Source: Spirochaetales bacterium
GTDB lineage: Bacteria > Spirochaetota > Spirochaetia > JABEVK01
Assembly (NCBI GenBank): GCA_037142615.1
Contig: JBAXAI010000011.1
Coordinates: 51,418-115,417, forward strand
DNA: 64,000 nucleotides
Direction of reading: 5' to 3'
Position 1 is the stretch's first letter, and each line of letters begins with the position of its first letter. The notes below the pieces were generated by a model. That model saw only the letters and a program-made list of their open reading frames with translations. It searched no databases and was not told the DNA's origin. Made by a program: the position numbers and the translations under genes. Positions 2 through 14,755 of the stretch are shown here, piece by piece.

Positions 2-1348
2 AGCCTGAGCCAGGCTGGAGCGATGCTGATGCAAACCCGTATGGGTGGTCCCCTCGGTCTTGTGGCCGGGCTCGCGCTGGGGCTGGGCCTGCTCATCAAG
101 GCAGGCGGTTTGGGGCTTCACGTTTGGCTGCCCTCAACCTACGCCGAGGCTGACGACGACATTTCGCCGCTGCTGAGCTCGGTGCTCAGCAAGGCCGGCG
201 TGCTCGGCCTCTTCTTGGCGGCCGGCTTTTTCGCCCAACCGCTGCTGGCCAACCTCGGTTACCTGCCGGGCGTGCTCGGTGGGTCCAAGCTCGAAGCCGC
301 GACGCTGGCCGACATTCTGGGCTGGGTCGGGGTGGCCACGGCGGTGGCGGGAGCGCTTTTGGCGCTGTTCCAAGAAGACATCAAGTACTCGCTGGCCTAT
401 TCCTCGATGAGCCAACTGGGCTACATCGTGCTGAGTTTTGCCATGATGACGCACCTGGGCTGGGTCAGCTCGCTGTACTTGTCGGTGACGCACCTGTTTA
501 TCAAGGGGATGATCTTTTTGGCGGTGGCCGGCATCATCCAGCGCACCGGCACACGCTACATGTACCAGATGGGGGGCCTGATCAAGCGCATGCCGATCAG
601 CTTTGTGTCGGTGCTCATCGGCATTATTGCCCTGTCGGGTGTGCCTCCCCTGGCGGGCTTCGGCGGCAAATGGCTGATGTACACCGCCCTGCTCGAAAAA
701 GGCTGGTACCTGCAAGCGGGCCTCGCGATGTTCTCGTCGGCCGTGGCCTTCCTGTATCTGTTCCGCCTCATCCATTCGATGTTCCTGGGGCAACTCAAAA
801 CCCGGCACCGCGAGGTGAAAGAAGCCTCGTTCTGGACCCTGCTGCCGCAGGTGGCGTTCATGCTGCTCATTGTGGGCTTCTCGATGTTCCCCACCTACCT
901 CATCCAACCGCTGCAAGCCGCCGTGGAACCCTGGTTCACCTCGACCGTGCATTGGGAAGGGTACACGGTGATTTCGAGCCTCGGGTACTGGAACGGCAAC
1001 TGGGTGATGTACGCCACCATGGGCGTGTTCCTGATTCCGCTGGCATGGCTGATGCTGGCCAAGGGCCGCACCTACTGGGTGAAGCAGTTCAACATCGTGT
1101 TCGCGGCCGAGCGCCCGTACAAGCCCGAAACCACGCATTACGCGTACAACTTCTACGGCCATTACCAAAAGGCTCTCGGCTTTTTGGCCAAGCCCTTCGT
1201 GCGTAATTTCTGGACGCGCGTCGGTAGTGTTGTCCACACGCTTTCGGACGGTTTGCGGCGCTGGAACACCGGCAACGCCCAAGGCTACGCCCTTCAGGTT
1301 TTCGCTTACCTCATCCTCGTCTACCTCGTCTTGAAGGGAGGGTTCTGA
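2..1348 (+). CDS. Antiporter-like proton-translocating subunit (NuoL/M/N, MrpD, MbxH family) of a complex-I-like oxidoreductase; 5' end lies outside the window
   Basis: Frame is open from base 2. Many TM helices; family motifs KAG..GLHVWLP..Y.EA, S.LLS.VLSKAG, LAYSSMSQLGYI, HLFIKG, GVPPLAGFGGKW. Confidence 0.9.
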   Translation, partial: SLSQAGAMLMQTRMGGPLGLVAGLALGLGLLIKAGGLGLHVWLPSTYAEADDDISPLLSSVLSKAGVLGLFLAAGFFAQPLLANLGYLPGVLGGSKLEAATLADILGWVGVATAVAGALLALFQEDIKYSLAYSSMSQLGYIVLSFAMMTHLGWVSSLYLSVTHLFIKGMIFLAVAGIIQRTGTRYMYQMGGLIKRMPISFVSVLIGIIALSGVPPLAGFGGKWLMYTALLEKGWYLQAGLAMFSSAVAFLYLFRLIHSMFLGQLKTRHREVKEASFWTLLPQVAFMLLIVGFSMFPTYLIQPLQAAVEPWFTSTVHWEGYTVISSLGYWNGNWVMYATMGVFLIPLAWLMLAKGRTYWVKQFNIVFAAERPYKPETTHYAYNFYGHYQKALGFLAKPFVRNFWTRVGSVVHTLSDGLRRWNTGNAQGYALQVFAYLILVYLVLKGGF

Positions 1349-1350
1349 TC

Positions 1351-2280
1351 GTGACTGACATCCTGATCAAAGCCGGCTTTCTGTTCATTTCGCTCATGGT
1401 GATCTTGAACTACTCGCTGGTGCTCATCGGCACGATGGCGCGCATCCGGGCCAAGGTGCAGGGTCGCATCGGCCAGCCCTTTTACCAGCCCTACATCGAC
1501 ATCATCAAGTCAAACGCCAAGCGCACCACCATCTCGCACGGCGTGATGTTCTACCTCGGACCGGTGTTCCGGTTGGCGGGCGGCCTGGGCACCTACATGT
1601 TCATTCCGGCCATTTACGGTTCGGTGATCTTCTCGAACCTGGCGTTTTCGGGCGACCTGCTGCTGGTGATGTACTTCATCTTTTTCGGTCAGCTCGGCAT
1701 GGCGCTGGGCGCCGGCGAAAGTGGGCACCCCCACTCGCCGCTGGGGGTGGCGCGCGGCTTGGCTCAGATGACAGCCTTCGAACTGCCCTTCGCGCTGGCC
1801 GTGATTTCGATCGCGGCGCAGTTCCATACGCTGTCGATCACTGAAATCGTGGCGCAGCAGCAGGGGGGCTGGCAGCACTGGGTGGCGTTCACCAACCCGC
1901 TGGCCATGGCGGCCGGCATGCTGGCCTTTTTGGGCATGAGCATGAACAACCCGTTCTCGGTGGTCATCGCGCCGCAAGAGATTCCCATCGGACCGCCCAC
2001 CGAGTATCAGGGCAGCTTTTTGGGCATGTTGCAGACCAACCGGGCCATCTTTAACGGTGCCAAGATGGTGCTGTTCATGAACCTGTTCTGGGGCGGCGCC
2101 GCGCACGAAATCCTGCTGGTCGCCATCCTCATCATGGTGCTCAAGACCTTCTTGATTTACCTGTACGTGACCATCGTGGGAGCCAGTTTTCCGCGCTTCC
2201 GCACCGAACAGTCGATCCGCTTCTTCCTCGGGGTTCCCACCCTGCTGGGCTTGGCGGCCGTGATCCTTCAGATGCTGTAA
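1351..2280 (+). CDS. mbxM: NuoH-like membrane subunit (MbxM/MbsM-like)
   Basis: ARIRAKVQGRIGQPFYQPYIDIIK N-terminal motif, EIPIGPPTEYQG loop, PRFR motif; directly follows the antiporter subunit. Confidence 0.85.
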   Translation: MTDILIKAGFLFISLMVILNYSLVLIGTMARIRAKVQGRIGQPFYQPYIDIIKSNAKRTTISHGVMFYLGPVFRLAGGLGTYMFIPAIYGSVIFSNLAFSGDLLLVMYFIFFGQLGMALGAGESGHPHSPLGVARGLAQMTAFELPFALAVISIAAQFHTLSITEIVAQQQGGWQHWVAFTNPLAMAAGMLAFLGMSMNNPFSVVIAPQEIPIGPPTEYQGSFLGMLQTNRAIFNGAKMVLFMNLFWGGAAHEILLVAILIMVLKTFLIYLYVTIVGASFPRFRTEQSIRFFLGVPTLLGLAAVILQML

Positions 2281-2292
2281 AGGGAGTACCCG

Positions 2293-3048
2293 ATGAGCGA
2301 CGAACTGAACAAAACAAGCGAATGGGGCGAGCTCGGCGCTCCGGCCGGAACCCCGGTCCGGAATCCTGATCCGCGCACCATCCCGGGCTCGCCCGAAGCC
2401 GACGAGTACTCGGTCGGTCAGCTGCGCATTCTGACCAAGGAACTGACCCTGGCCAACGAAGGCCTGGCCGACGAGGACAAGTACCTGTACTGCGACCAGG
2501 CGCCTGACGTGATCAAGCCCTTCCGGGGTTTCTGGGAAGACTTTCTGAACTGGGCGCGCGCCGAGAGCCTGTGGATTCTGGGCTTTGGCACCGGTTGTGG
2601 CGCCATCGAGTTGCGCCCCTTGATGACCAGCCGGTTCGACATGTACCGCTTCGGCATTCAGCCCCGGCCCACCCCGCGCCAATCGTCGGTGTTCGTCATC
2701 GGCGGCTACGCTTCGGTGAAGACCGTGAAGCGCATCGTGCGCAGCTACGAGCAGATGCAGGGACCCAAGTTCGTGGTCGCGCTGGGCAGCTGCACCATCA
2801 ACGGCGGCATGTACTGGGACAGCTACAACACCATCAACCGGATCGACCACTACATTCCCGTCGACATTTACATCGCCGGTTGCATGCCGCGCCCCGAAGC
2901 GCTTCTGGCCGGCTTCAAGAAACTCAAAGAGATGATCAAGGACGGGCAGTGCGAGGGTGCCAACCGCTACGCCGAGCACTTTGAGTGGTACAAGGGCAAC
3001 CAGAAGCGCGTCATCAAAGACTGGAACATGCCGGACTACAACTGGTAA
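2293..3048 (+). CDS. mbxJ: NuoB-like Fe-S subunit (MbxJ/MbsJ-like)
   Basis: SLWILGFGTGCGAIE, PLMTSRFD, GSCTINGGMYWDSY, PVDIYIAGCMPRPEA. The PLMTSR.D and GG.YWD.Y signatures match the Mbx/MBS clade as I recall it. SD agggag upstream. Confidence 0.85.
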   Translation: MSDELNKTSEWGELGAPAGTPVRNPDPRTIPGSPEADEYSVGQLRILTKELTLANEGLADEDKYLYCDQAPDVIKPFRGFWEDFLNWARAESLWILGFGTGCGAIELRPLMTSRFDMYRFGIQPRPTPRQSSVFVIGGYASVKTVKRIVRSYEQMQGPKFVVALGSCTINGGMYWDSYNTINRIDHYIPVDIYIAGCMPRPEALLAGFKKLKEMIKDGQCEGANRYAEHFEWYKGNQKRVIKDWNMPDYNW

Positions 3049-3059
3049 GGGGAACACAC

Positions 3060-3611
3060 ATGAACGATATGGAAAGGCTTCTGGAAGAGCTGGCCAGGCG
3101 TTTCGGCGCCACCAACCCCCTTCAGGTCAAGATGAACCAGTACTACGTGTCGGTGCCGTCAGCCCAGGCTGTGGCCGCGCTGACCCAGCTCAAGACGCTT
3201 GAGGGCTTCGGGCACCTCTCGTTTTTCACCTGCGTCGACTACCTGGAAGAAGACCGCTTCGAGCTGCTGTACCTGCTGCACTCGTACACCCGGGGGACAG
3301 ACCTCGGCGTGCGTGTGTCGATTCCGCGAACCTTGCCGGTGCAGATGGAAGGCATTCACCACCTGTGGGCCGCCGGCGAAACCTACCAGCGCGAACTACG
3401 CGAAATGTACGGCATCGAGTTTCCAGGCTCGCCCCGGCTCCACGACGACTTCGCGCTCGAAGGCTGGCAGGAAATGCCCCCCATGCGCCGCGACTTCGAC
3501 ACCAAGGAATACAGCCTGCGGACCTTTGAGGCGCGGCCCGGGCGCGCGAAGATCGACAACCGTGAGCATATGAAAAAAGAGCTTTACCCCAGCGAGGCCG
3601 AAACATGGTAA
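3060..3611 (+). CDS. mbxK: NuoC-like subunit (MbxK-like)
   Basis: ATG at 3060 after the previous stop; TCVDY, RELREMYGIEFPG, EGW...PPMRRDF motifs. Confidence 0.85.
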   Translation: MNDMERLLEELARRFGATNPLQVKMNQYYVSVPSAQAVAALTQLKTLEGFGHLSFFTCVDYLEEDRFELLYLLHSYTRGTDLGVRVSIPRTLPVQMEGIHHLWAAGETYQRELREMYGIEFPGSPRLHDDFALEGWQEMPPMRRDFDTKEYSLRTFEARPGRAKIDNREHMKKELYPSEAETW

Positions 3612-4840
3612 ACGCCCCCAAAATTTCGCCCAAGGCGGCCCGTGGGGTCGACCTTCGCCGCCGCAACCAGGCCCACATCAACGACAACCCGCTGATGCCG
3701 CCCATTGTGAACGGCAAGGCGGTGTTCGAGCTCGAGAGCGGCAAGTACCTCAAAACGTGGCAGGGCCCCCAGCACCCCGGCATCACCGGCAACATGAGCC
3801 TCGAGCTGGTCATCTGCGGCGACGAGATTGTCGAGTGCAAAACCCACGTTGGCTACCTGCACCGCGGGTTCGAAAAGCTCCTGGAGCGCCGCAAGTACAT
3901 CCAGTGCTTTCCGGTGGTGTGCCGCATCGCGGTACCCGAGCCCGATTTCAACGAATACCTGTTTGCCGAAACGCTCGAATCGCTCTCAGGCATACAGATT
4001 CCCGAAAAGGCGCAGTGGATCCGCACCATGCAGCTCGAAATGGCGCGGCTGGCGAGCTTTTTCATGTGGTTGGGCGGCCAGGGTGGCGCCTTCGGCATGG
4101 AGACGCAAGGCCAGTGGACGGTCACCATGCGCGACTACCTGCTCGACCGCTTCGAGGAGTTGACTGGTCACCGCATCTACCACATGTACATGTTGCCTGG
4201 CGGCGTCCGCTCCGACCTCCCCGAAGGGTTCTTGGGTCGGCTTCGCGACACCCTCGACACTTGCCAGACCACGCTTGACGACGTGGAACGCACCATGTTT
4301 CACAACGCCGTGTTCAAGATGCGGGCCAAGGGCTTGGGCGTGATCAATCCCGCCATCGTCGAAGAGTTTGGCATCACCGGGCCCAACGCCCGCGCCGCTG
4401 GTTTTGCCCGCGACCTGCGCAAGGACGAGCCCTACGGCGTTTACCCGCAACTCGACTTTGCGGTGATCACCCGCACCGATTCCGACGCCTACGCCCGCGC
4501 CGAAGTGCGGCTTGAGGAGATGTACCAGGGCATCAGCCTCTTGCGGCAGATCTGCGACCGCATGCCCAAGGACGGTCCGTTCTTCACCCCGCTGCCCAAC
4601 GTGCTGCATTGGCAGGTGCCCAAGGGCTTCATCTACACCAAGGCCGAATGCACCCGGGGCGAGTACGGGTACTACTTGGAGAGTGATGGCAGCGACAAGC
4701 CGCGACGCCTGTACGTTCGGGGCCCGAGCTACACCCACGCTGTGAGCCTGATGGAACACTTGTCGATTGGCTGCAACATTGCCGATACCGCGGGGCTCAT
4801 GGTGAGCCTCCACACCTATCCGCCGGAAGTCGAGAGGTAA
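3605..4840 (+). CDS. mbxL: NuoD-like large subunit without NiFe ligands (MbxL/MbsL-like)
   Basis: GPQHPG, GYLHRGFEKL, RIAVPEPD, E..RGE.G, C-terminal SLHTYPPEVER; no CxxC pairs for a NiFe site. Confidence 0.85.
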   Translation: MVNAPKISPKAARGVDLRRRNQAHINDNPLMPPIVNGKAVFELESGKYLKTWQGPQHPGITGNMSLELVICGDEIVECKTHVGYLHRGFEKLLERRKYIQCFPVVCRIAVPEPDFNEYLFAETLESLSGIQIPEKAQWIRTMQLEMARLASFFMWLGGQGGAFGMETQGQWTVTMRDYLLDRFEELTGHRIYHMYMLPGGVRSDLPEGFLGRLRDTLDTCQTTLDDVERTMFHNAVFKMRAKGLGVINPAIVEEFGITGPNARAAGFARDLRKDEPYGVYPQLDFAVITRTDSDAYARAEVRLEEMYQGISLLRQICDRMPKDGPFFTPLPNVLHWQVPKGFIYTKAECTRGEYGYYLESDGSDKPRRLYVRGPSYTHAVSLMEHLSIGCNIADTAGLMVSLHTYPPEVER

Positions 4841-4843
4841 GTC

Positions 4844-6631
4844 ATGAGCCTGAGAGATATTGTTCAACCCTTTACGGTGTGGAAGCGTGCCCTCGACAAG
4901 CCCTACACCAGCCTTAAACCCCTGGAAGAACGCCCGGGAGCCCCGCGCTACCGGGGGTTCCACATCAACAACACCGCCAAGTGCATCGGGTGTGGCACCT
5001 GCGAAACCATCTGCCAAAACGAGGCCATCGACCTGGTGGCGGTGCTCGGCCAAAAGACCAAGCACGGCGACTCGGGCCTGCGCCCGCAGATCGACTACGG
5101 CCGCTGTTGCTGGTGCGCGCTGTGCGTCGATATGTGCCCCACCTCGAGCCTCGGCATGTCGAACGAGTACGTCTGGATCGAGACCGACCCCGAAAAGTAC
5201 CGGTTCGTGCCTGGGGTCGACGACAAGTCGTGGAACGACTGTGAGCTGGGCTACCGACGTTCCGAGGGTTACGACCTTTTGACGGCCAAACGCGTCGAAA
5301 TGCCCATGCTGCCCTTCGCCGAAAGCCAAAAGAGCTTCGTCGAGATGGTGCAGGGCTACAGCAAAGAGCAGGCCATGAAAGAGGCCGACCGCTGCATCGA
5401 GTGTGGCCTCTGCATCGCCACCTGCCCCGCCCACATGAATGTGCCAGCCTACATCGCGGCCATCCGCAAGGACGAGGTCGAAGAGGGCCTGCGCATCGTG
5501 TACGAGGCCAACCCCCTGCCCGCCAGCTGTGGCCGCATCTGCTCGCACGCCTGCGAATACGTGTGCGCCATGAAGCACCGGGGCGAGGCGCTGAGCATCC
5601 GCTGGCTCAAGCGCTACATCGTCGACCAGATCTACGCCATGGACTACAAAAAGGTGCTCAAGACCGCCGAACCCGACAACGGCAAGACGATCGCCATCAT
5701 CGGTTCGGGCCCCGGGGGCCTGGCGGCGGCCTACTACCTGCGCATGCTCGGTTACGGCGTCACCATCTACGACAGCAAAGACAAAGCCGGCGGCATGTTG
5801 CGCTACGGCATCCCCGAATATCGCTTGCCCTACGACCAGATCGACAAGGACATCAACTGGCTCAAGGAGCTCGGCGTCAGCATCAACCAGAGCGTGCGCA
5901 TCGGCCGCGACATCTCGTTTGAGCAGCTGCACCGCGACAACGACGCGCTGTTCTTCTCAACGGGCTTGGGCAAGCCCTTTGGGCTCGAAATCCCCGGCGA
6001 CGACCTGCCGGGCGTCAAGGACGGCCTCAAGGTGCTCGAAGACGTCACCAACGGCGTCGACGCCGACCTGGGCGACTCGGTGGTGGTGGTCGGCGGCGGC
6101 AACGTCGCCATGGACGCCGCGCGGACCAGCCGCCGTTTCAATGCCGCCGTGACCATCCTGTACCGTCGCCGCATCGAAGACATGCCGGCCGATGTCGAAG
6201 AGGTTCACGAAAGCCAGGGCGAGGGCTGCGTCATCCGCGCTCAAGCCATCCCGCTGCGCGTCGAAAAGGGCACCACCAAGCGCCTGCGCCTCGTGTGGGG
6301 CAAGGCCGACATGGTCACCGACGGCAAGGGTGGCCGCCCCGTCCCGGTGCTGATTCCCGGCAGCGAGGAAGTCATCGAGTGCGACACCGTGGTCGCCGCT
6401 ATCGGCCAGGGCGCCGAGTACGAGTTCATTCCGCAAGACATCGCGGCGAAGCTGCAGTTCAACAAGGGCAACGTCGTCGTCAACGAGTTCAAACAGACCG
6501 GCGACCCCAAAGTGTTCGCGGGTGGCGATATTGTGAATCCGAAGAAAGATGCCATCTCGGGCATCGCCAACGGCCATTCTGCTGCCAAAGGCATTGACAT
6601 CTGGCTGACGAACTTCAAGGATAAGGCATGA
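4844..6631 (+). CDS. Fusion of NuoI/MbxN-like 2x[4Fe-4S] domain and GltD/NfnB-like FAD/NAD(P)H oxidoreductase
   Basis: N-terminus RYRGFH, CIGCGTCETIC, CCWCALCVDMCP (NuoI); then CIECGLCIATCP, CGRIC...C...C, GSGPGG (FAD), GGMLRYGIPEYRLP, GGGNVAMD, YRR, FAGGD. Confidence 0.9.
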   Translation: MSLRDIVQPFTVWKRALDKPYTSLKPLEERPGAPRYRGFHINNTAKCIGCGTCETICQNEAIDLVAVLGQKTKHGDSGLRPQIDYGRCCWCALCVDMCPTSSLGMSNEYVWIETDPEKYRFVPGVDDKSWNDCELGYRRSEGYDLLTAKRVEMPMLPFAESQKSFVEMVQGYSKEQAMKEADRCIECGLCIATCPAHMNVPAYIAAIRKDEVEEGLRIVYEANPLPASCGRICSHACEYVCAMKHRGEALSIRWLKRYIVDQIYAMDYKKVLKTAEPDNGKTIAIIGSGPGGLAAAYYLRMLGYGVTIYDSKDKAGGMLRYGIPEYRLPYDQIDKDINWLKELGVSINQSVRIGRDISFEQLHRDNDALFFSTGLGKPFGLEIPGDDLPGVKDGLKVLEDVTNGVDADLGDSVVVVGGGNVAMDAARTSRRFNAAVTILYRRRIEDMPADVEEVHESQGEGCVIRAQAIPLRVEKGTTKRLRLVWGKADMVTDGKGGRPVPVLIPGSEEVIECDTVVAAIGQGAEYEFIPQDIAAKLQFNKGNVVVNEFKQTGDPKVFAGGDIVNPKKDAISGIANGHSAAKGIDIWLTNFKDKA

Positions 6632-7506
6632 AGCACACCCCACACACCATCACGGGCAAGAGGCAATTGTCTGCCGACGTTTACCGGATGACCTTTTTGG
6701 CGCCGTACATTGTCGAGGCCCGCAAGGCCGGTCAGTTCATCATCATCCAGATCGACAGCAACTTTGGCGAGCGCATCCCGCTCACCATTGCCGACGCCGA
6801 TCCCGTGGCCGGATCGATCACCATCATCTTCCAGGCTGTGGGCAAAACGACCCTCAACCTGGCGGCCAAAAACGTGGGCGATGTGCTGGGCAATGTGCTA
6901 GGGCCTTTGGGCAAACCCACCGAAGTGCACCGCTATGGCACCGCCGACAAACCGGGCACCGTGGTGTGCGTCGGCGGCGGCATCGGCGTGGCTCCCATGC
7001 ACCCCATCGTGCAGGCTCACCACGCCATCGGCAACAAGGTCGTCACCATCATGGGCGCCCGCAACAAGGATCTTTTGATTCTCGAAGACGAAATGAAGGC
7101 CATCAGCAATGAGCTGATCGTGTGCACCGACGACGGCAGCTATGGCCGCAAAGATCTGGTCACGATTCCCCTCATCGAATGGTGCAAAACCGGCGAAGTC
7201 AGCGAAGTGATCGCGATCGGCCCGCCCATCATGATGAAGTTTGCCGCCGAGGCCACGCGCCCCTTTGGCGTCAAAACCATGGTGAGCCTGAACACCATCA
7301 TGGTCGACGGCACCGGCATGTGCGGCGGCTGCCGGGTGAACGTCGGCGGCGAAACCAAGTTTGTGTGCGTGGATGGGCCCGAGTTCGACGGCCACAAGGT
7401 CGATTTTGACAACATGATGATGCGGCTCAAGGCATACAAGGGCCAGGAAAGTGAGGCGGCGCACAAATGTCGTGTTGGGGCAACTCCGGCCGGAGCCGCG
7501 TCGTGA
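6628..7506 (+). CDS. nfnA: NfnA/SudB small subunit of electron-bifurcating NADH-dependent ferredoxin:NADP+ oxidoreductase
   Basis: GERIPLTIAD, GPLG, GGGIGVAP, IGPPIMMK, MVDGTGMCGGCRV...CVDGPEFD ([2Fe-2S] Asp/Cys motif); ATGA overlap with the previous gene. Confidence 0.9.
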   Translation: MKHTPHTITGKRQLSADVYRMTFLAPYIVEARKAGQFIIIQIDSNFGERIPLTIADADPVAGSITIIFQAVGKTTLNLAAKNVGDVLGNVLGPLGKPTEVHRYGTADKPGTVVCVGGGIGVAPMHPIVQAHHAIGNKVVTIMGARNKDLLILEDEMKAISNELIVCTDDGSYGRKDLVTIPLIEWCKTGEVSEVIAIGPPIMMKFAAEATRPFGVKTMVSLNTIMVDGTGMCGGCRVNVGGETKFVCVDGPEFDGHKVDFDNMMMRLKAYKGQESEAAHKCRVGATPAGAAS

Positions 7507-9020
7507 GCGAACACCACCACCGCACCCTGGCCGAACTCGACAGCGAGGCCGTCGCCGTCTGGAACGAATACGAGCCCCAAGTGGCCGCTGGTACCCTCAA
7601 GGCCAAGGACCGCGCCAAGATTCCGCAGATGGATATGCCCAGCCAGGACCCGTCGGTCCGTCGTCACAACCAGGGCGAAGTGGCCCTGGGCTACACCGAG
7701 GCGCAAGTGCGCGTCGAAGCGCTGCGCTGTCTGGACTGCAAGAACGCCCCCTGCGTGGCGGGTTGCCCCGTCACCATCGACATTCCCGGCTTCGTCAAGT
7801 TGGCCGCCGAGGGCAAGTTCCAGGAATCGATTGACCTGATCAAGCAGTCCAGCGTCCTGCCTGCGGTTTGTGGACGCGTGTGCCCCCAGGAAAGCCAGTG
7901 CATGGAACTGTGCACCGTGGGCAAAGTTGCCAAGGACCGCATGAAGTCGGTGGCCATCGGCCGCATCGAGCGCTTTGTGGCCGACAGGGAGCGCGAAAGC
8001 GGAGCCGTCAACGTTCCTGCCATCGCAGCGCACACCGGCTGCAGCGTCGCCATCATCGGCTCGGGACCCGCGGGGTTGACGGCTGCCGCCGATTTGCGCA
8101 AGGCCGGTCACGAGGTCTCGATCTTCGAAGCCTTCCACAAGGCCGGCGGCGTCATGGTGTACGGCATTCCCGAGTTCCGTCTGCCCAAGGCCATTGTCGA
8201 GCAAGAAATTGCCACGCTGGCTGCCATGGGGGTCGAGTTTCACCACAACTTTTTGATCGGGCGAACGCGTACCATCAAAGACCTCATCGAGAAGGACGGG
8301 TTCGACGCCATCTTCATCGGTTCCGGCGCAGGCCTGCCGCAGTTCATGAACATCGAGGGCGAGAACCTGGTCGGCGTGTTCAGCGCCAACGAGTACCTCA
8401 CCCGATCGAACCTGATGAAGGCCTACGACCGCGCCAACGTCGATACCCCCATCTTCCAGTCCAAAAAGGTGGCCGTGCTCGGTGGTGGCAACGTGGCCAT
8501 GGACGCCGCCCGCATGGCGTTGCGCCTGGGTGCCGAAGAGGTCAACATCATCTACCGCCGCACCCGCGACGAAATGCCAGCCCGCGCCGAAGAGGTCGAG
8601 CATGCCGCCGAAGAGGGCATCACGTTCCACTTTTTGTCGAACCCGGTGAGGATTTTGGGCGACGAGACCGGCCGCGTGAAGGCCGTCGAGTGCCAGCGCT
8701 ACGAACTGGGCGAGGCCGACGCCTCGGGTCGCCGCAAACCCTTGCCCATCGAAGGGGCATTTTTCACCCTTGAAATGGACACCGTGATTCCGGCGCTTGG
8801 CAACGTGTCGAACCCGCTGATCAAGCAGACCACCATCGAACTCGAAACCAACAAGCGGGGCAACATCGTGGTCGATGACCAAAAGCGCACGTCGATGCCG
8901 CGGGTCTACGCGGGCGGCGACATCGTGCTCGGCGCTGCCACGGTCATCCTGGCGATGGGCGAAGGTCGCACCGCCGCCGCTGCCATCACCAAGGACCTGG
9001 CCGAGCGGCGCTGGGGCTGA
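7503..9020 (+). CDS. nfnB: NfnB/SudA large subunit
   Basis: GTG start overlapping the nfnA stop (GTGA); EALRCLDC...CVAGCPV, CGRVCPQESQC, IGRIERF, GSGPAG, YGIPEFRLP, GGGNVAMD, GAATVILAMGEG. Confidence 0.9.
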   Translation: MSEHHHRTLAELDSEAVAVWNEYEPQVAAGTLKAKDRAKIPQMDMPSQDPSVRRHNQGEVALGYTEAQVRVEALRCLDCKNAPCVAGCPVTIDIPGFVKLAAEGKFQESIDLIKQSSVLPAVCGRVCPQESQCMELCTVGKVAKDRMKSVAIGRIERFVADRERESGAVNVPAIAAHTGCSVAIIGSGPAGLTAAADLRKAGHEVSIFEAFHKAGGVMVYGIPEFRLPKAIVEQEIATLAAMGVEFHHNFLIGRTRTIKDLIEKDGFDAIFIGSGAGLPQFMNIEGENLVGVFSANEYLTRSNLMKAYDRANVDTPIFQSKKVAVLGGGNVAMDAARMALRLGAEEVNIIYRRTRDEMPARAEEVEHAAEEGITFHFLSNPVRILGDETGRVKAVECQRYELGEADASGRRKPLPIEGAFFTLEMDTVIPALGNVSNPLIKQTTIELETNKRGNIVVDDQKRTSMPRVYAGGDIVLGAATVILAMGEGRTAAAAITKDLAERRWG

Positions 9021-9024
9021 CGCC

Positions 9025-9372
9025 ATGGAAACCCGCGAGCTGGTCGCCTCGGTCAAGGAACGCTTTCAAGACATCCGGTGTCTGCAGGTCGAGCACTACC
9101 TGGGCCTGATGTCGAGTCCGTTGCGGTTCCACATCCTGTGTGCGCTGAACACGCACTCGTTCTCGGTGGGCGAACTGGTCGAGATCTGCGAAGGCACGCT
9201 GTCGAACGTCAGTCAGCAGCTCAAGCTGCTCTGGATGGGCGGCTTGATCACCAAGGCCCGCCAGGGCAAAACCATCGTCTACTCGCTCGGTGACCAGCGT
9301 GTCGCCCAGCTCATCGCCACGCTCGAGGAGCTGTTCGCCAAAGAAGTGACAGCCTGCGTGGACGAGGACTAG
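9025..9372 (+). CDS. ArsR/SmtB-family regulator, BigR/SqrR-like
   Basis: ATG at 9025; PLRFHILCAL, SVGEL, SNVSQQLKLL, R.GKTIVYSL winged HTH; several Cys residues. Confidence 0.8.
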   Translation: METRELVASVKERFQDIRCLQVEHYLGLMSSPLRFHILCALNTHSFSVGELVEICEGTLSNVSQQLKLLWMGGLITKARQGKTIVYSLGDQRVAQLIATLEELFAKEVTACVDED

Positions 9373-11429: not shown

Positions 11430-11822
11430 TTATTCTTGGACCGGCTCGCGTGAGCGTGTCGCGGCCAATTCCCGCTCTTCGACCGTAGCGGGAAACAGGC
11501 GCTGTTCGCAACCAGCGAGGGTCACAGCCATGTGCTGGCCGGCGACGGTGAGCGAAAGGACCTTGCGGCGGCCGTCGCCCCGGCTGAGGTCACGGAAAAT
11601 GAGGCCCTTGAGGTCGAGAGTCTTGATGACCCGCGAAAGGCTGGCACCGTGGATTCGCAGCTCGTCGGCGAGATCACCTGCGCTGAGCGGACCTTTGGCC
11701 AAGCAACACAGGGCGAAGCTCTGGTTGAGATTCAGGCCGGTCTCCGTGCGCAGCGACGACTCCAGCTGCACCACCGTCGCCATGAGATCCTTGACCTGAC
11801 ACAGATCCTTGAGGTTCAGCAT
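11430..11822 (-). CDS. MarR-family transcriptional regulator
   Basis: GLNLNQ...L, SAGDLA, SLSRVIKTL..KGLI.R, DGRR..LSLT..G winged-helix signature. Confidence 0.85.
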   Translation of the reverse strand: MLNLKDLCQVKDLMATVVQLESSLRTETGLNLNQSFALCCLAKGPLSAGDLADELRIHGASLSRVIKTLDLKGLIFRDLSRGDGRRKVLSLTVAGQHMAVTLAGCEQRLFPATVEERELAATRSREPVQE

Positions 11823-11881: not shown

Positions 11882-13159
11882 CTACTTCTTGAAGGTCTTG
11901 TAGCCCATCATGCTCAGGCCCATCTTTTCGTAAAAGGGCGCGGCAACCCCGTTGCGGATCTTACGGATGAAGTACTTTTCGAAAATGATCTTGCCCCAAT
12001 GCACCCAGATTCCCTTCTTGGCGATGGTGACGTTGCGGGGAGGAATCTGCGGAATGGCCACGAAGCCCATGCTGTTGCCGTCGCCGGTATCGGCCGCACA
12101 CAGCGCGTTCCACTCGGGAACCCTGGTCGGAGCCTGACCGTCGAGCTGCGAGCGGATGTTCACCGCGCTGGCAGCGGCCATCGATTCGATCATCACGCCC
12201 GTTTTGGGGATGCCGGTGGGAACCGCCGTCGGTTCCTTGGGAGCGATGGCCACGCACACCCCCACGCCGTAGATGTTGGGGAACTTAGGGTTCTGTTGCT
12301 GCGCGTTGATCAGGATGAACCCACGGGGGTTGGTGAGGCCTTCGATGCCCCTTACCGCGTCAACGCCAGTAAAAGCAGGCAGGATCATGGAATGCTTGAA
12401 CGGGAGCTCGTGAACCTTTTTGTCCTTGCCTTCCTCGTCGCATTCCATCACCGTCATTTTGCCGTCTTCGACCTTTTGGATCTTGGCGTTGGTGATCCAG
12501 CGGACGGTGCGGTCGCGCATCATGCCTTCCATCATCCCCTTGGAGTCGCCCACCCCACCCAAGCCGAGGTGCCCGATGTAGGGTTCGCTGGTGACGTAGG
12601 TGATGGGAACTTTGTCGCGGATGCTGCGCCGGCGCAGGTCGGTGTCGGCCTGCAGCATGTACTCGTAGGCAGGGCCAAAGCAACTGGCGCCTTGGGCAGC
12701 GCCCACGATCATCGGGCCGGGGGCTTCGCAGAACTTAGCCCAGGCGTCGAAGGTTTCGGCGGCGTGATCGACATGGCACACCGACTTGGTGAATCCTCCG
12801 TGGGGTCCAAGACCCGGGATTTCGTCAAAGGCGAGGCGGGGCCCCGTGGCGATCACGAGGTAATCGTAGGTGATCGAGGTGCCATCTTTCATCTCGATGC
12901 GATTTTCGGTGGGGTGAACCTTGGCGGCCGCCTGCTGCACAAAGGTGATCTTTTTGCGTTTGAACATGGGGGCGAGCGCCACCTTGATCTGGTCAGGACG
13001 GCGCCAGCCGAAGCCGACCCAAGGGTTCGAAGGGGTAAAGTGGAAAGTCGGACTGTCCGAGATCACCATCACCTCGTCTTCTTTCCGGGCGTGATGTTTC
13101 ATTTCGAGCGCAGCCGGTACACCGCCGACGCCAGCGCCAAGGATCACAATGCGTGCCAT
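11882..13159 (-). CDS. sqr: Sulfide:quinone oxidoreductase, type I-like
   Basis: GAGVGG FAD motif, SVCHVDHA, GASCFGPAYE, EPYIGHLGLGGVGDS, PKTG.MIESM, WNALCAAD, IPQIPPRN, FEKYF. Confidence 0.92.
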   Translation of the reverse strand: MARIVILGAGVGGVPAALEMKHHARKEDEVMVISDSPTFHFTPSNPWVGFGWRRPDQIKVALAPMFKRKKITFVQQAAAKVHPTENRIEMKDGTSITYDYLVIATGPRLAFDEIPGLGPHGGFTKSVCHVDHAAETFDAWAKFCEAPGPMIVGAAQGASCFGPAYEYMLQADTDLRRRSIRDKVPITYVTSEPYIGHLGLGGVGDSKGMMEGMMRDRTVRWITNAKIQKVEDGKMTVMECDEEGKDKKVHELPFKHSMILPAFTGVDAVRGIEGLTNPRGFILINAQQQNPKFPNIYGVGVCVAIAPKEPTAVPTGIPKTGVMIESMAAASAVNIRSQLDGQAPTRVPEWNALCAADTGDGNSMGFVAIPQIPPRNVTIAKKGIWVHWGKIIFEKYFIRKIRNGVAAPFYEKMGLSMMGYKTFKK

Positions 13160-13230: not shown

Positions 13231-13839
13231 TTATCGGTTCACCCGGGTGCGGAATTGCTCGAGAGCCAGGAGTTCGGGGTCGCCCGAAAACCCTGCCTCG
13301 GACACCCCGACACCCTGGATGTAGCGGGCCCAAAAGTTCACTTGGGCCACCGTGGCCGCAATAACGGTAAAGGCCCTGTCCGAGAAGTGCCGGTGCAACG
13401 CCTCGATCACGGGGTCGGGAAAACGCACCGGCGTGGCACAGACGCACGCGGCGTAGCGCAAGGCAGCCGCCTCGCCGGCGGTTTCGGGGGTCGAGAACAA
13501 CGGAGAGTCCCACGGCTTGCCAGTGGCCAGGGCTTTCACCTCGGCAGCTGACACCCCTTCGGCCGCAAAGCCCTGACCGTTCAGGTCGATGCAAAACGGG
13601 CACGACACCTGGTACGAGGCGAACACCCGCAGCAGCTTGAGCAGCCGCCGGGGCACCTCGGGGTCATCGTGAATCACCAGCGCTTCCATCAGTCCCGTGC
13701 CGGCCAAAAGGCGCGGCGACCACGCGAGAATCCGGTTGGCCTCGAGGCGTTTGCCCAGCTTCCGCTCTACCTGCCCCAGCAGCCAACCCCACGGGAACGG
13801 TAGACGGGCCGGCGGGCGAACGAAGGGCTCGGGGGTCAC
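13231..13839 (-). CDS. Carboxymuconolactone decarboxylase/AhpD-like protein with CxxC
   Basis: GTG start overlapping the DUF2892 stop; S...SCPFCID motif, ALHRHFS, NFWAR. Confidence 0.75.
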   Translation of the reverse strand: MTPEPFVRPPARLPFPWGWLLGQVERKLGKRLEANRILAWSPRLLAGTGLMEALVIHDDPEVPRRLLKLLRVFASYQVSCPFCIDLNGQGFAAEGVSAAEVKALATGKPWDSPLFSTPETAGEAAALRYAACVCATPVRFPDPVIEALHRHFSDRAFTVIAATVAQVNFWARYIQGVGVSEAGFSGDPELLALEQFRTRVNR

Positions 13840-14045
13840 AACTTTTTGACCGAAATCGTCTTGACGCCAAAAACGGCCCAAATGGGGCACCAGCTGATGC
13901 TCGCAGTGACAGCCATAATAACGGCAGCGGCAAGCGCAACCCAAGCCGGCCAGCCGCTCGACCAGAACACGATTCCGGTGATGACCAGGCCAACGGCCAG
14001 CACGGCGCGGATGATTCGATCCAAAGTCCCTGTGTTTTTTTCCAT
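13836..14045 (-). CDS. DUF2892/YgaP-like small membrane protein
   Basis: MEKNTGTLDRIIR....G, two TM helices, WCP.W..FG.KT motif; SD AGGAG. Confidence 0.85.
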   Translation of the reverse strand: MEKNTGTLDRIIRAVLAVGLVITGIVFWSSGWPAWVALAAAVIMAVTASISWCPIWAVFGVKTISVKKL

Positions 14046-14063
14046 GTGTGTACTCCTAGGTTC

Positions 14064-14106
14064 AAGATAACCGGGCCGAGGCCCCTCGTCGGTGACCGCA
14101 GTCACA
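14064..14106 (-). promoter_or_regulatory. Class II Crp/Fnr-dependent promoter for DUF2892-AhpD
   Basis: Minus-strand TGTGA-ctgcgg-TCACC (14091-14106) is centred at about -41.5 relative to a TATCTT -10 element (14064-14069). Confidence 0.65.
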
Positions 14107-14755
14107 ATTGACGCAAAGTTTCGCGCTCGAGAAGCTTGAGCGAGCCCCGCGACGACTCGATCCACCCCTGACGCTCGAAGTCGCGCAGGATTCGGGTGAC
14201 CACCTCGCGGCTCGACCCGACGGCGTCGGCCAGTTCCTGATGGGTTTTGCGCACCGTGTCGTCGGCCGAGGCGACCAGCAGCGCCGCGACCCGTTGGTCG
14301 AGGTGGCGGAAGGCCAGCGCCTCGACCAGTTCGATCACCGAACCCAACCGCTGGGCCAGCTGACCAAACGCCAGCCGCCGGAACGACGGCGAGCGGCCGA
14401 CGAGCGCGACAAACAGTTCGGAAGGCACCATGACGGCCTGCGTGTCGCCATCGACCGAAACCTGAGCAGGGAAGCTGTCGCCGCCCATCAACGACGTGGC
14501 GGTGAGCGGGCAGCATTCGCCGGGACCGAGTGTGTACAGGCGGATGCGACGGGCCGAGTCGGTGGTCTTGGACACTTCCAACAGGCCTGCGAGCACCAAA
14601 GGCGCGGCCGAGCACTCGTCGCCGTCACGAACCAGCACCGTGCCACTTGGCCAGCGGACGACTTGGCGCCGGGTAAGCTCCGAGGCGAGCAAGGCATCGT
14701 CGCGGTCGAGGGAGGGGAAAGCGTTCCAGAATTGCCCGAGCTGAAGAGTGTCCAT
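14102..14755 (-). CDS. Crp/Fnr-family transcriptional regulator
   Basis: cNMP-like domain (LYTLGPGECC), LDQRVA, THQELADAVGSSREVVTRIL HTH. Confidence 0.9.
   Translation of the reverse strand: MDTLQLGQFWNAFPSLDRDDALLASELTRRQVVRWPSGTVLVRDGDECSAAPLVLAGLLEVSKTTDSARRIRLYTLGPGECCPLTATSLMGGDSFPAQVSVDGDTQAVMVPSELFVALVGRSPSFRRLAFGQLAQRLGSVIELVEALAFRHLDQRVAALLVASADDTVRKTHQELADAVGSSREVVTRILRDFERQGWIESSRGSLKLLERETLRQL

Follow-up and report, generated by a model that had tools for sequence, protein, structure and literature searches.

The 64,000-nucleotide stretch of DNA analysed here (hereafter the window; contig JBAXAI010000011.1 of the Spirochaetales bacterium assembly GCA_037142615.1) begins inside a long plus-strand operon, in which positions 2293-4840 encode three proteins related to subunits of the archaeal complex MBS: a 251-residue MbsJ/NuoB-like small subunit (2293..3048, +; 6u8y_J, E 3.1e-67), an MbsK/NuoC-like subunit (about 3057..3611, +, with the start codon picked by eye; Pfam Complex1_30kDa, E 3.6e-23) and a 411-residue MbsL/NuoD-like large subunit (3605..4840, +; 6u8y_L, E 6.8e-93). 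Upstream of them lie the C-terminal part of a double antiporter-like subunit equivalent to MbsH-H' (2..1348, +, 5' end open; Pfam Proton_antipo_M) and an MbsM/NuoH-like membrane anchor subunit (1351..2280, +; Pfam NADHdh, E 2.8e-44); downstream is a 595-residue protein (4844..6631, +; 6u8y_N, 5jca_L, Pfam, NCBIfam PRK13984) that combines, as a fusion, an MbsN/NuoI-like 2x[4Fe-4S] domain with an NfnB/GltD-like FAD-NAD(P)H flavoprotein. The full antiporter-like reading frame starts upstream of the window and encodes 1105 residues with two antiporter modules (L001:13449-16766), and thus MbsH and MbsH', which are separate in Pyrococcus furiosus, form a single fused protein at this locus. Genes for MrpE, MrpF, MrpG, MbhD, MbhE/MnhB and a NuoK-like subunit are found within 19 kb upstream (Pfam/NCBIfam). 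The MBS gene set (Mrp-like, antiporter-like and NuoH/B/C/D/I-like) is complete in one operon, with H and H' fused and N fused to the flavoprotein, and the reading frames are all open from the Mrp-like genes through a regulator gene that follows the operon. The solved chains closest to all three cofactor subunits (J, L and N) are those of MBS, 6U8Y, with complex I, NDH-1 and MBH chains scoring lower. Judged by sequence, the locus is an unremarkable representative of a bacterial group that is widespread and related to archaeal MBS, and it belongs to a known family: Mrp-Nuo operons whose NuoI subunit carries a gltD-like flavoprotein have been described from genomes (Degli Esposti, 2015; PMC4758237).

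The small subunit, which reads ...LGFGTGCGAIEL..., contains the codons ttt ggc acc ggt tgt ggc (F-G-T-G-C-G), with G99 encoded by ggc at 2587-2589 and C102 by tgt at 2596-2598, and its remaining cluster motifs are GSC (C167) and GCMP (C197). It has five Cys in total (67, 102, 167, 197 and 220), of which C67 lies in an N-terminal extension of approximately 74 residues. The alignment with MbsJ runs without gaps across 162 residues (query 81-242 to MbsJ 7-168, E 3.1e-67), which fixes the assignment of G99 to C25, C102 to C28, C167 to C93 and C197 to C123. Furthermore, the aligned stretch spans 119 residues versus 122 in MbhJ, consistent with the three-residue shortening that puts C25 of MBS out of reach of the cluster, and the NdhK and NDUFS7 chains read C-C where this subunit reads G-T-G-C-G.

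In the large subunit, the codons tgc cgc atc gcg gta ccc (C-R-I-A-V-P) give the protein sequence VVCRIAVPEPD, with A109 (gcg) at 3929-3931 and C106 (tgc) at 3920-3922, three residues N-terminal of A109, the site of the lost ligand. The C-terminus, immediately before the stop codon, is SLHTYPPEVER, with cac acc tat ccg ccg encoding H-T-Y-P-P and Y405 (tat) at 4817-4819. When aligned with MbsL (E 6.8e-93), A109 corresponds to C85 (RICVPEPD) and Y405 to C385 (SLDNCPPDIDR); hydrogenase-like representatives read C-G-I-C at the place occupied here by A109 to E112. An AlphaFold2 model of the large subunit, built on a 56-row alignment, reached a predicted local distance difference test score (pLDDT) of 90.5, and its best fold match was 6u8y_L (TM-score 0.87/0.96, root-mean-square deviation 1.8 Å). 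Alignment with 2fug_4 placed T61 on H38 and V110 on Y87 of the Thermus protein, so that the quinone ligands of complex I are absent. Codon-by-codon reading of the plus strand therefore bears out the three motifs on which a sequence-only reading of this segment had been built (FGTGCG, RIAVPEPD and SLHTYPPEVER); the three cluster Cys that it counted in the small subunit (GTGC, GSC, GCMP) are C102, C167 and C197, and it was right that archaeal MBS has a single Cys at each of the two large-subunit sites, these being MbsL C85 and C385.

The meaning of these replacements depends on what is known of the archaeal enzyme. As given in the sections of Yu et al. (2020; PMC7684303) drawn on here, cryo-electron microscopy of P. 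furiosus MBS revealed a proximal [4Fe-4S] cluster with only C28, C93 and C123 as ligands; C25 is present, although too far to bind because its loop is shortened by three residues relative to MBH; and C85 and C385, about 12 Å from the cluster, are remnants of the NiFe site. The same sections report that the C25A and C85A/C385A variants retain wild-type dimethyl trisulfide (DMTS) reductase activity, and that ferricyanide strips the unique iron together with approximately 98% of the activity, which Fe2+ restores, in a reversible [3Fe-4S] conversion (PMC7684303). In a 2021 review, the conservation of C85 and C385 is called surprising, given that both are non-catalytic. The alignment with Pyrococcus MbsJ and MbsL thus shows that the spirochaete proteins keep exactly the three ligands and lose exactly the three dispensable Cys, and the proposal of a site-differentiated [4Fe-4S] cluster with an open iron is therefore reasonable. 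It would follow from homology to MBS, which is itself three-Cys ligated, and would represent an expected, inherited state rather than a new one; it would not have been created by the Cys-to-Gly change, as C25 was already a non-ligand in MBS. Consequently, the view of this locus as a natural test of cluster-based S-S reduction has largely been overtaken at the bench, where, in the sections cited, C25A and C85A/C385A MBS proved active (PMC7684303). The two retained vestigial NiFe Cys that mark archaeal MBS are replaced here by A109 and Y405; since that Cys pair was shown to be non-catalytic in the same partial account (PMC7684303), its retention is a descriptive rather than a functional criterion.

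A scan of one genome per species yielded at least 583 related loci across Spirochaetota, Cloacimonadota, sulfur-oxidising Gammaproteobacteria, Bacteroidota and others, indicating a widespread family; the locus counts given below refer to the best 80 of these, at 59-81% identity. Their hosts belong to Spirochaetota, Cloacimonadota, Bacteroidota, Fidelibacterota, Calditrichota, Gammaproteobacteria (Thiothrix, Sedimenticola, Thiodiazotropha, Thiosymbion, Thioalkalivibrio and Thiobacillus) and Alphaproteobacteria (Celeribacter and Aliiruegeria). Cultivable carriers named among the homologues include Thiothrix caldifontis DSM 21228, Celeribacter litoreus and Aliiruegeria sabulilitoris, as well as Marispirochaeta aestuarii and Spirochaeta isovalerica. 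Among the 120 closest small-subunit homologues, G-T-G-C is present in 120/120 and the three ligand Cys (C102, C167 and C197) are all kept in 120/120; at species level, C167 and C197 occur in all 74 loci with a small-subunit hit and C102 in 72/72 of those covering the site, where position 99 is Gly in 70/72 and Ala in 2/72. The 120 closest large subunits, a set that includes the window's own protein, show Cys in 99 and Ala in 21 at position 109; Tyr in 118, Cys in one and Asn in one at position 405; and Cys in 119 and Ser in one at position 106. The corresponding figures for species-level loci are Cys in 50/80 and Ala in 30/80 at position 109, and Tyr in 71/78 and Cys in 7/78 at position 405. 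Thus, the substitutions are not peculiar to this locus; within the bacterial clade they are either the norm or a frequent state, and across the homologues compared the Cys state of the window is an ordinary one for its clade. By the same comparison, the Cys states are inherited and conserved features, not chance degeneration.

The history of the two large-subunit sites was explored with a quick maximum-likelihood tree (LG+G4, SH-aLRT only) of 83 rows, comprising the window, 79 loci and three distant representatives, with L003 left out as too short and two archaeal-like representatives as the root. At least six changes are required at position 109 and two at position 405, and lineages with both Cys (Calditrichaceae and some Cloacimonadota) are located near the base. 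The window falls in a starred three-row A109/Y405 clade with L002 and L006, to which the pair L004 (A form) and L005 (C form) is sister; the resulting starred five-row clade holds four rows reading C-A-Y at positions 106, 109 and 405, and one reading C-C-Y (L005). Other spirochaete subfamilies, at 42-54% identity and all with the fusion subunit, display further combinations: L082 and L086 pair a C25-type small subunit with Cys at both large-subunit sites, L088 and L089 pair a G-type small subunit with Cys at both, and L083, L084, L085 and L087 (genomes G022, G060, G134 and G007; 42-44% identity) pair a C25-type small subunit with N109/V405 and a retained Cys106. The NiFe-relic Cys were thus lost independently in this last subfamily, and in the alignments the loss of vestigial Cys is apparently recurrent and tolerated. 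This distribution offers natural support for the published bench result, given that the non-ligand Cys of MBS have been lost repeatedly and the open-iron ligands kept in nearly every locus examined. As a separate observation, the small subunit at L084:4865-5515 reads G-S-R-P-V at the second ligand motif, which is G-S-C in all others; either an error in sequencing or a genuine two-Cys variant may explain this.

The description of the pocket as cysteine-stripped, on the other hand, was overstated, as a Cys stands at large-subunit position 105 or 106 in 80/80 rows of the bacterial clade, where MBS has Leu. Six rows with V106 carry the Cys at position 105, and the notion that rows reading V-A-Y represent pockets fully free of Cys was therefore rejected, the Cys being merely shifted. 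The C-terminal motif H-T-Y-P-P-E is similarly kept, with H403 in 75/78, T404 in 78/78 and Y405 in 71/78, at a place where MBS reads D-N-C-P-P-D. As far as the aligned rows go, the Cys at 105/106 and His403 of the large subunit are clade-specific. Most clade members (50/80) have C106-x-x-C109, of which the window locus retains only C106; because C109 is dispensable in nature, being Ala in 30/80, a C106-C109 disulfide cannot be essential. The idea that position 106 might match the proton-gate Glu of hydrogenases was dropped as unsupported. In the literature searched, we found no paper describing the recurrent loss of vestigial Cys, the small-subunit Gly or the conserved Cys106, His403 and Tyr405; these three constitute concrete, conserved pocket residues worth mutating.

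Set beside P. furiosus MBS, the spirochaete system shares the Mrp-like and NuoH/B/C/D/I-like gene set, the three cluster ligands, shortened loop and gap-free alignment of the small subunit, and a large subunit whose best match in both sequence and fold is MbsL. Conversely, it differs in the Gly, Ala and Tyr that stand for MbsJ C25, MbsL C85 and MbsL C385, in the new Cys106 and His403 of the large subunit, in the N-terminal extension of the small subunit, in the fusion of MbsH and MbsH' into 1105 residues, and in a bacterial, mesophilic-type host; in addition, the MbsN of P. furiosus is a free, ferredoxin-accepting subunit, whereas here it has an NfnB/GltD-like NAD(P)H flavoprotein as its fusion partner. 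The bacterial mbx-like operons of Thermotoga and proteobacteria, as covered by the sections of PMC4758237 drawn on here, likewise have a NuoI-type subunit joined to a gltD-like flavoprotein after the Mrp-Nuo set; however, their NuoD has vestigial Cys at positions 86 and 403 in Thermus numbering, and the spirochaete locus has neither (Degli Esposti, 2015).

The pairing of NuoB with NuoD is a textbook contact, and complex I (Nqo6/Nqo4 of T. thermophilus) is similar in fold, in subunit homology and in having lost the NiFe-ligand Cys at Thermus positions 86 and 403. It differs in that the spirochaete small subunit lacks the tandem CC of N2, in the presence of T61 and V110 for the quinone ligands H38 and Y87, and in the Mrp-type modules and GltD-like input that are found here rather than a NuoEFG module. 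Group 4 [NiFe] hydrogenases are marked by four NiFe Cys and a CxxC-type proximal cluster, in place of which the window has A109, E112, Y405 and a small-subunit GxxC. With ferredoxin:thioredoxin reductase (FTR) and heterodisulfide reductase, the likeness is limited to the working principle, in which a special-iron [4Fe-4S] cluster acts on an S-S bond; the sequences are unrelated, the CxxC of the window is incomplete (A109), and the equivalent site in MBS lies about 12 Å from the cluster.

The fusion protein encoded next to the module matches 6u8y_N over residues 7-123 (2.1e-21) and the NfnI large subunit 5jca_L over residues 148-590 (2.1e-76), and the best solved relatives of its flavoprotein domain are bifurcating-type modules, namely 8oh5_C, which we take to be the large subunit of the Stn complex, 9n5u_A (deposited as NfnA) and 5jca_L. 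In 76 of the 80 loci its gene follows that of the MbsL-like subunit, and the other four stop at a contig edge. In the window, it is followed by an NfnA/SudB-like FAD/NAD and [2Fe-2S] subunit (6628..7506, +; NCBIfam NF004862, 381 bits, cut-off 220), whose start codon shares an ATGA at 6628-6631 with the stop codon of the fusion gene, an arrangement of translational coupling, and by an NfnB/SudA-like flavoprotein (7467..9020, +, start uncertain; TIGR01316, 606 bits, cut-off 472). Among the related loci, such an NfnAB-like pair adjoins the operon in just the four (4/80) that share the window's spirochaete clade, namely L002, L004, L005 and L006. Its products may either dock on the fusion subunit or act as a free Nfn.

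An ArsR-family regulator gene (9025..9372, +) begins 4 nt past the last operon gene, and the best solved relatives of its product are the persulfide sensors SqrR (6o8k, E 2.8e-9) and BigR (3pqj, E 9e-9). The first sensing Cys of these proteins has a counterpart in the alignment (ILCAL), whereas Ala occupies the position of the second and a Cys is found five residues further on; the NCBIfam BigR score of 52.9 bits is under the cut-off of 155. Comparable regulators come after the operon in L004, L005 and L007. Three kilobases downstream, a full-length sulfide:quinone reductase (SQR) is encoded on the minus strand (11882-13159; 1e-137 to SQR 3sz0 of A. ferrooxidans). The genes around it include a MarR-type gene (11430-11822) and an open reading frame (13836-14615) whose C-terminal part matches a YgaP-like transmembrane domain; by their similarities, SQR, the MarR-type gene and the YgaP-like frame together represent a sulfide/sulfane-sulfur neighbourhood.

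With the integration of these findings, we consider, with a probability of roughly 60%, that positions 2293-4840 encode the catalytic MbsJ/K/L module of a bacterial MBS-type, Mrp-linked, ion-translocating oxidoreductase with a three-Cys, open-iron cluster and with sulfane sulfur as its most likely substrate. In such a complex, NAD(P)H would by homology react at the FAD of the NfnB/GltD-like domain, through which electrons would enter or leave; since this domain and the MbsN/NuoI-like ferredoxin subunit form one fusion protein, they would cross its four [4Fe-4S] clusters to reach the proximal [4Fe-4S] cluster of the small subunit. This cluster would be held by C102, C167 and C197 alone, as in P. 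furiosus MBS, a ligation that would leave one iron free to bind the substrate, and the Mrp and antiporter modules would couple the reaction to ion translocation. Sulfane sulfur, as polysulfide or persulfide, would be the likeliest substrate for the open iron; this is our best guess because of the homology to MBS, the SqrR/BigR-like regulator and the nearby SQR, together with the response of Thermotoga maritima, where the system is called MBX and where, in the part of the study drawn on here, mbxA was up 4.4-fold with S0 (PMC9431562). G99, A109 and Y405 would then replace three Cys that MBS carries as non-functional relics of its [NiFe] hydrogenase ancestor, and losing them would represent drift, neutral or adaptive, on the known route that leads from hydrogenase via MBS to complex I; the Cys pattern fits both cluster-only catalysis and this stepwise path as proposed.

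Several points weigh against this interpretation. NAD(P)H has a potential of about -320 mV and polysulfide one of about -260 to -270 mV, and by these values the span from NAD(P)H to polysulfide would be small for a machine with two pump modules; ferredoxin-driven MBS yields 42 kJ per 2e- in the portion of the published account drawn on here. Moreover, the pocket differs from that of MBS, with Cys at 105/106, H403 and Y405 versus Leu, Asp and Cys; since the chemistry of MBS, with a mechanism partly based on FTR, is described in the sections drawn on here as needing neither protons nor residues (Yu et al., 2020; PMC7684303), the polar residues found here may point to a different chemistry. Sulfur oxidation or aerobic life is common among the hosts (Thiothrix, Sedimenticola, Thiodiazotropha, Roseobacteraceae), a poor fit with sulfur respiration, and quinones are probably present in this host because its genome encodes cytochrome bd, four UbiA-family genes and SQR. 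Our literature searches found no activity, cofactor or structure data for any bacterial member.

These same points feed an alternative that we regard as possible although unlikely, namely that the architecture and the three-Cys cluster are as proposed and the substrate is something other than inorganic polysulfide. Cys106, His403 and Tyr405 would form a proton-coupled or thiol site for an organic persulfide or disulfide, for thiosulfate or for quinone, or else the complex would run in reverse in sulfur oxidisers, with the ion gradient driving the formation of NAD(P)H. The near-invariance of the three residues in the bacterial clade and their absence from P. furiosus MbsL speak for such a site, as do the C106-x-x-C109 of 50/80 loci and the many sulfur-oxidising and aerobic hosts. 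Also in favour are the cytochrome bd, UbiA-family genes and SQR of this genome, in which the MBS-like complex is the only match, assembly-wide, to the window's NuoB-, NuoC-, NuoD- and NuoH-like proteins. On the opposing side, T61 and V110 stand in place of the two residues that bind quinone in complex I, and N2's tandem CC is absent. Further objections are that C109 is dispensable, excluding an essential disulfide with C106, and that the equivalent site in MBS is about 12 Å from the cluster in the sections cited (PMC7684303). A bolder version, which we hold to be doubtful, is that the bacterial clade is more than an MBS with an NADPH adaptor: Cys105/106, His403 and Tyr405, having taken the place of the vestigial C85/C385 pair by the open iron, might constitute a residue-assisted, proton-coupled site for another sulfur species such as organic or protein persulfide, and in sulfur-oxidising hosts the complex might act as a reversible, ion-gradient-driven sulfane-sulfur:NAD(P)+ oxidoreductase fed via the NfnB-type, bifurcation-capable flavoprotein.

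It is improbable that the proximal cluster has a fourth protein ligand (C67 of the small subunit, C106 of the large subunit, or an O/N ligand) and serves as a plain electron relay instead of a catalytic site. Suspicion falls on C67 because it lies in the F-C-D-x-x-P part of a motif, L-x3-D-x3-F-C-D-x2-P-x4-P (2449-2535, residues 53-81), that is absent from P. furiosus MbsJ, and because it is kept in 116/120 of the closest small-subunit homologues. Among species-level loci, however, this position is Cys in 59/72, Ser in 10/72 and Ala in 3/72, and in L088 and L089 the G-type small subunit begins with a short N-terminus that lacks the extension; therefore, C67 cannot be an obligatory ligand and was rejected as such. 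The invariant Cys at large-subunit position 105/106 could be invoked as well; yet position 106 is three residues from the C85 site, itself about 12 Å from the cluster in MBS according to the sections cited (PMC7684303). A search for a fourth ligand thus disposes of C67 in an obligatory role, and it revealed no new Cys, His or Asp beside the three ligand motifs relative to MbsJ.

Still less credible is the older Mbx idea of a ferredoxin:NAD(P)+ oxidoreductase with its chemistry confined to the peripheral arm and a J/L pocket without substrate. It has appeared in print for mbx-like operons, in the portions drawn on here of PMC4758237 and a Mesotoga preprint, and it would account for the fused NAD(P)H flavoprotein and the co-transcribed NfnAB-like pair. 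For P. furiosus, it gave way to a direct reduction of polysulfide at the proximal cluster, as reported in the sections cited (PMC7684303); in the bacterial clade, the strict conservation of the three ligands, of V110-P111-E112-P113 and of the C-terminal H-T-Y-P-P-E argues for a working pocket, and the two rnfC-type loci of this genome already cover the ferredoxin:NAD(P)+ reaction. That the Cys losses signal a decaying, non-functional complex is scarcely believable, since replaced ligand-position residues are the sole sign of it and all frames are open from the Mrp-like genes to the regulator, the same states recur across phyla in highly conserved surroundings, and the large-subunit model is confident (pLDDT 90.5).

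A further accessory gene distinguishes some of the related loci. A gene of approximately 173 codons with a weak rubrerythrin match (6e-8) comes after the fusion gene in 24 of the 58 loci with enough downstream DNA (e.g., L039:9451-9972), an arrangement already noted by Degli Esposti (2015; PMC4758237) in the sections drawn on here. The window operon is without a rubrerythrin-type gene, having the NfnAB-like pair and the ArsR-type regulator instead. A link between the Cys state and such accessory genes was considered and rejected, as the rubrerythrin-like gene accompanies C109 and A109 alike.

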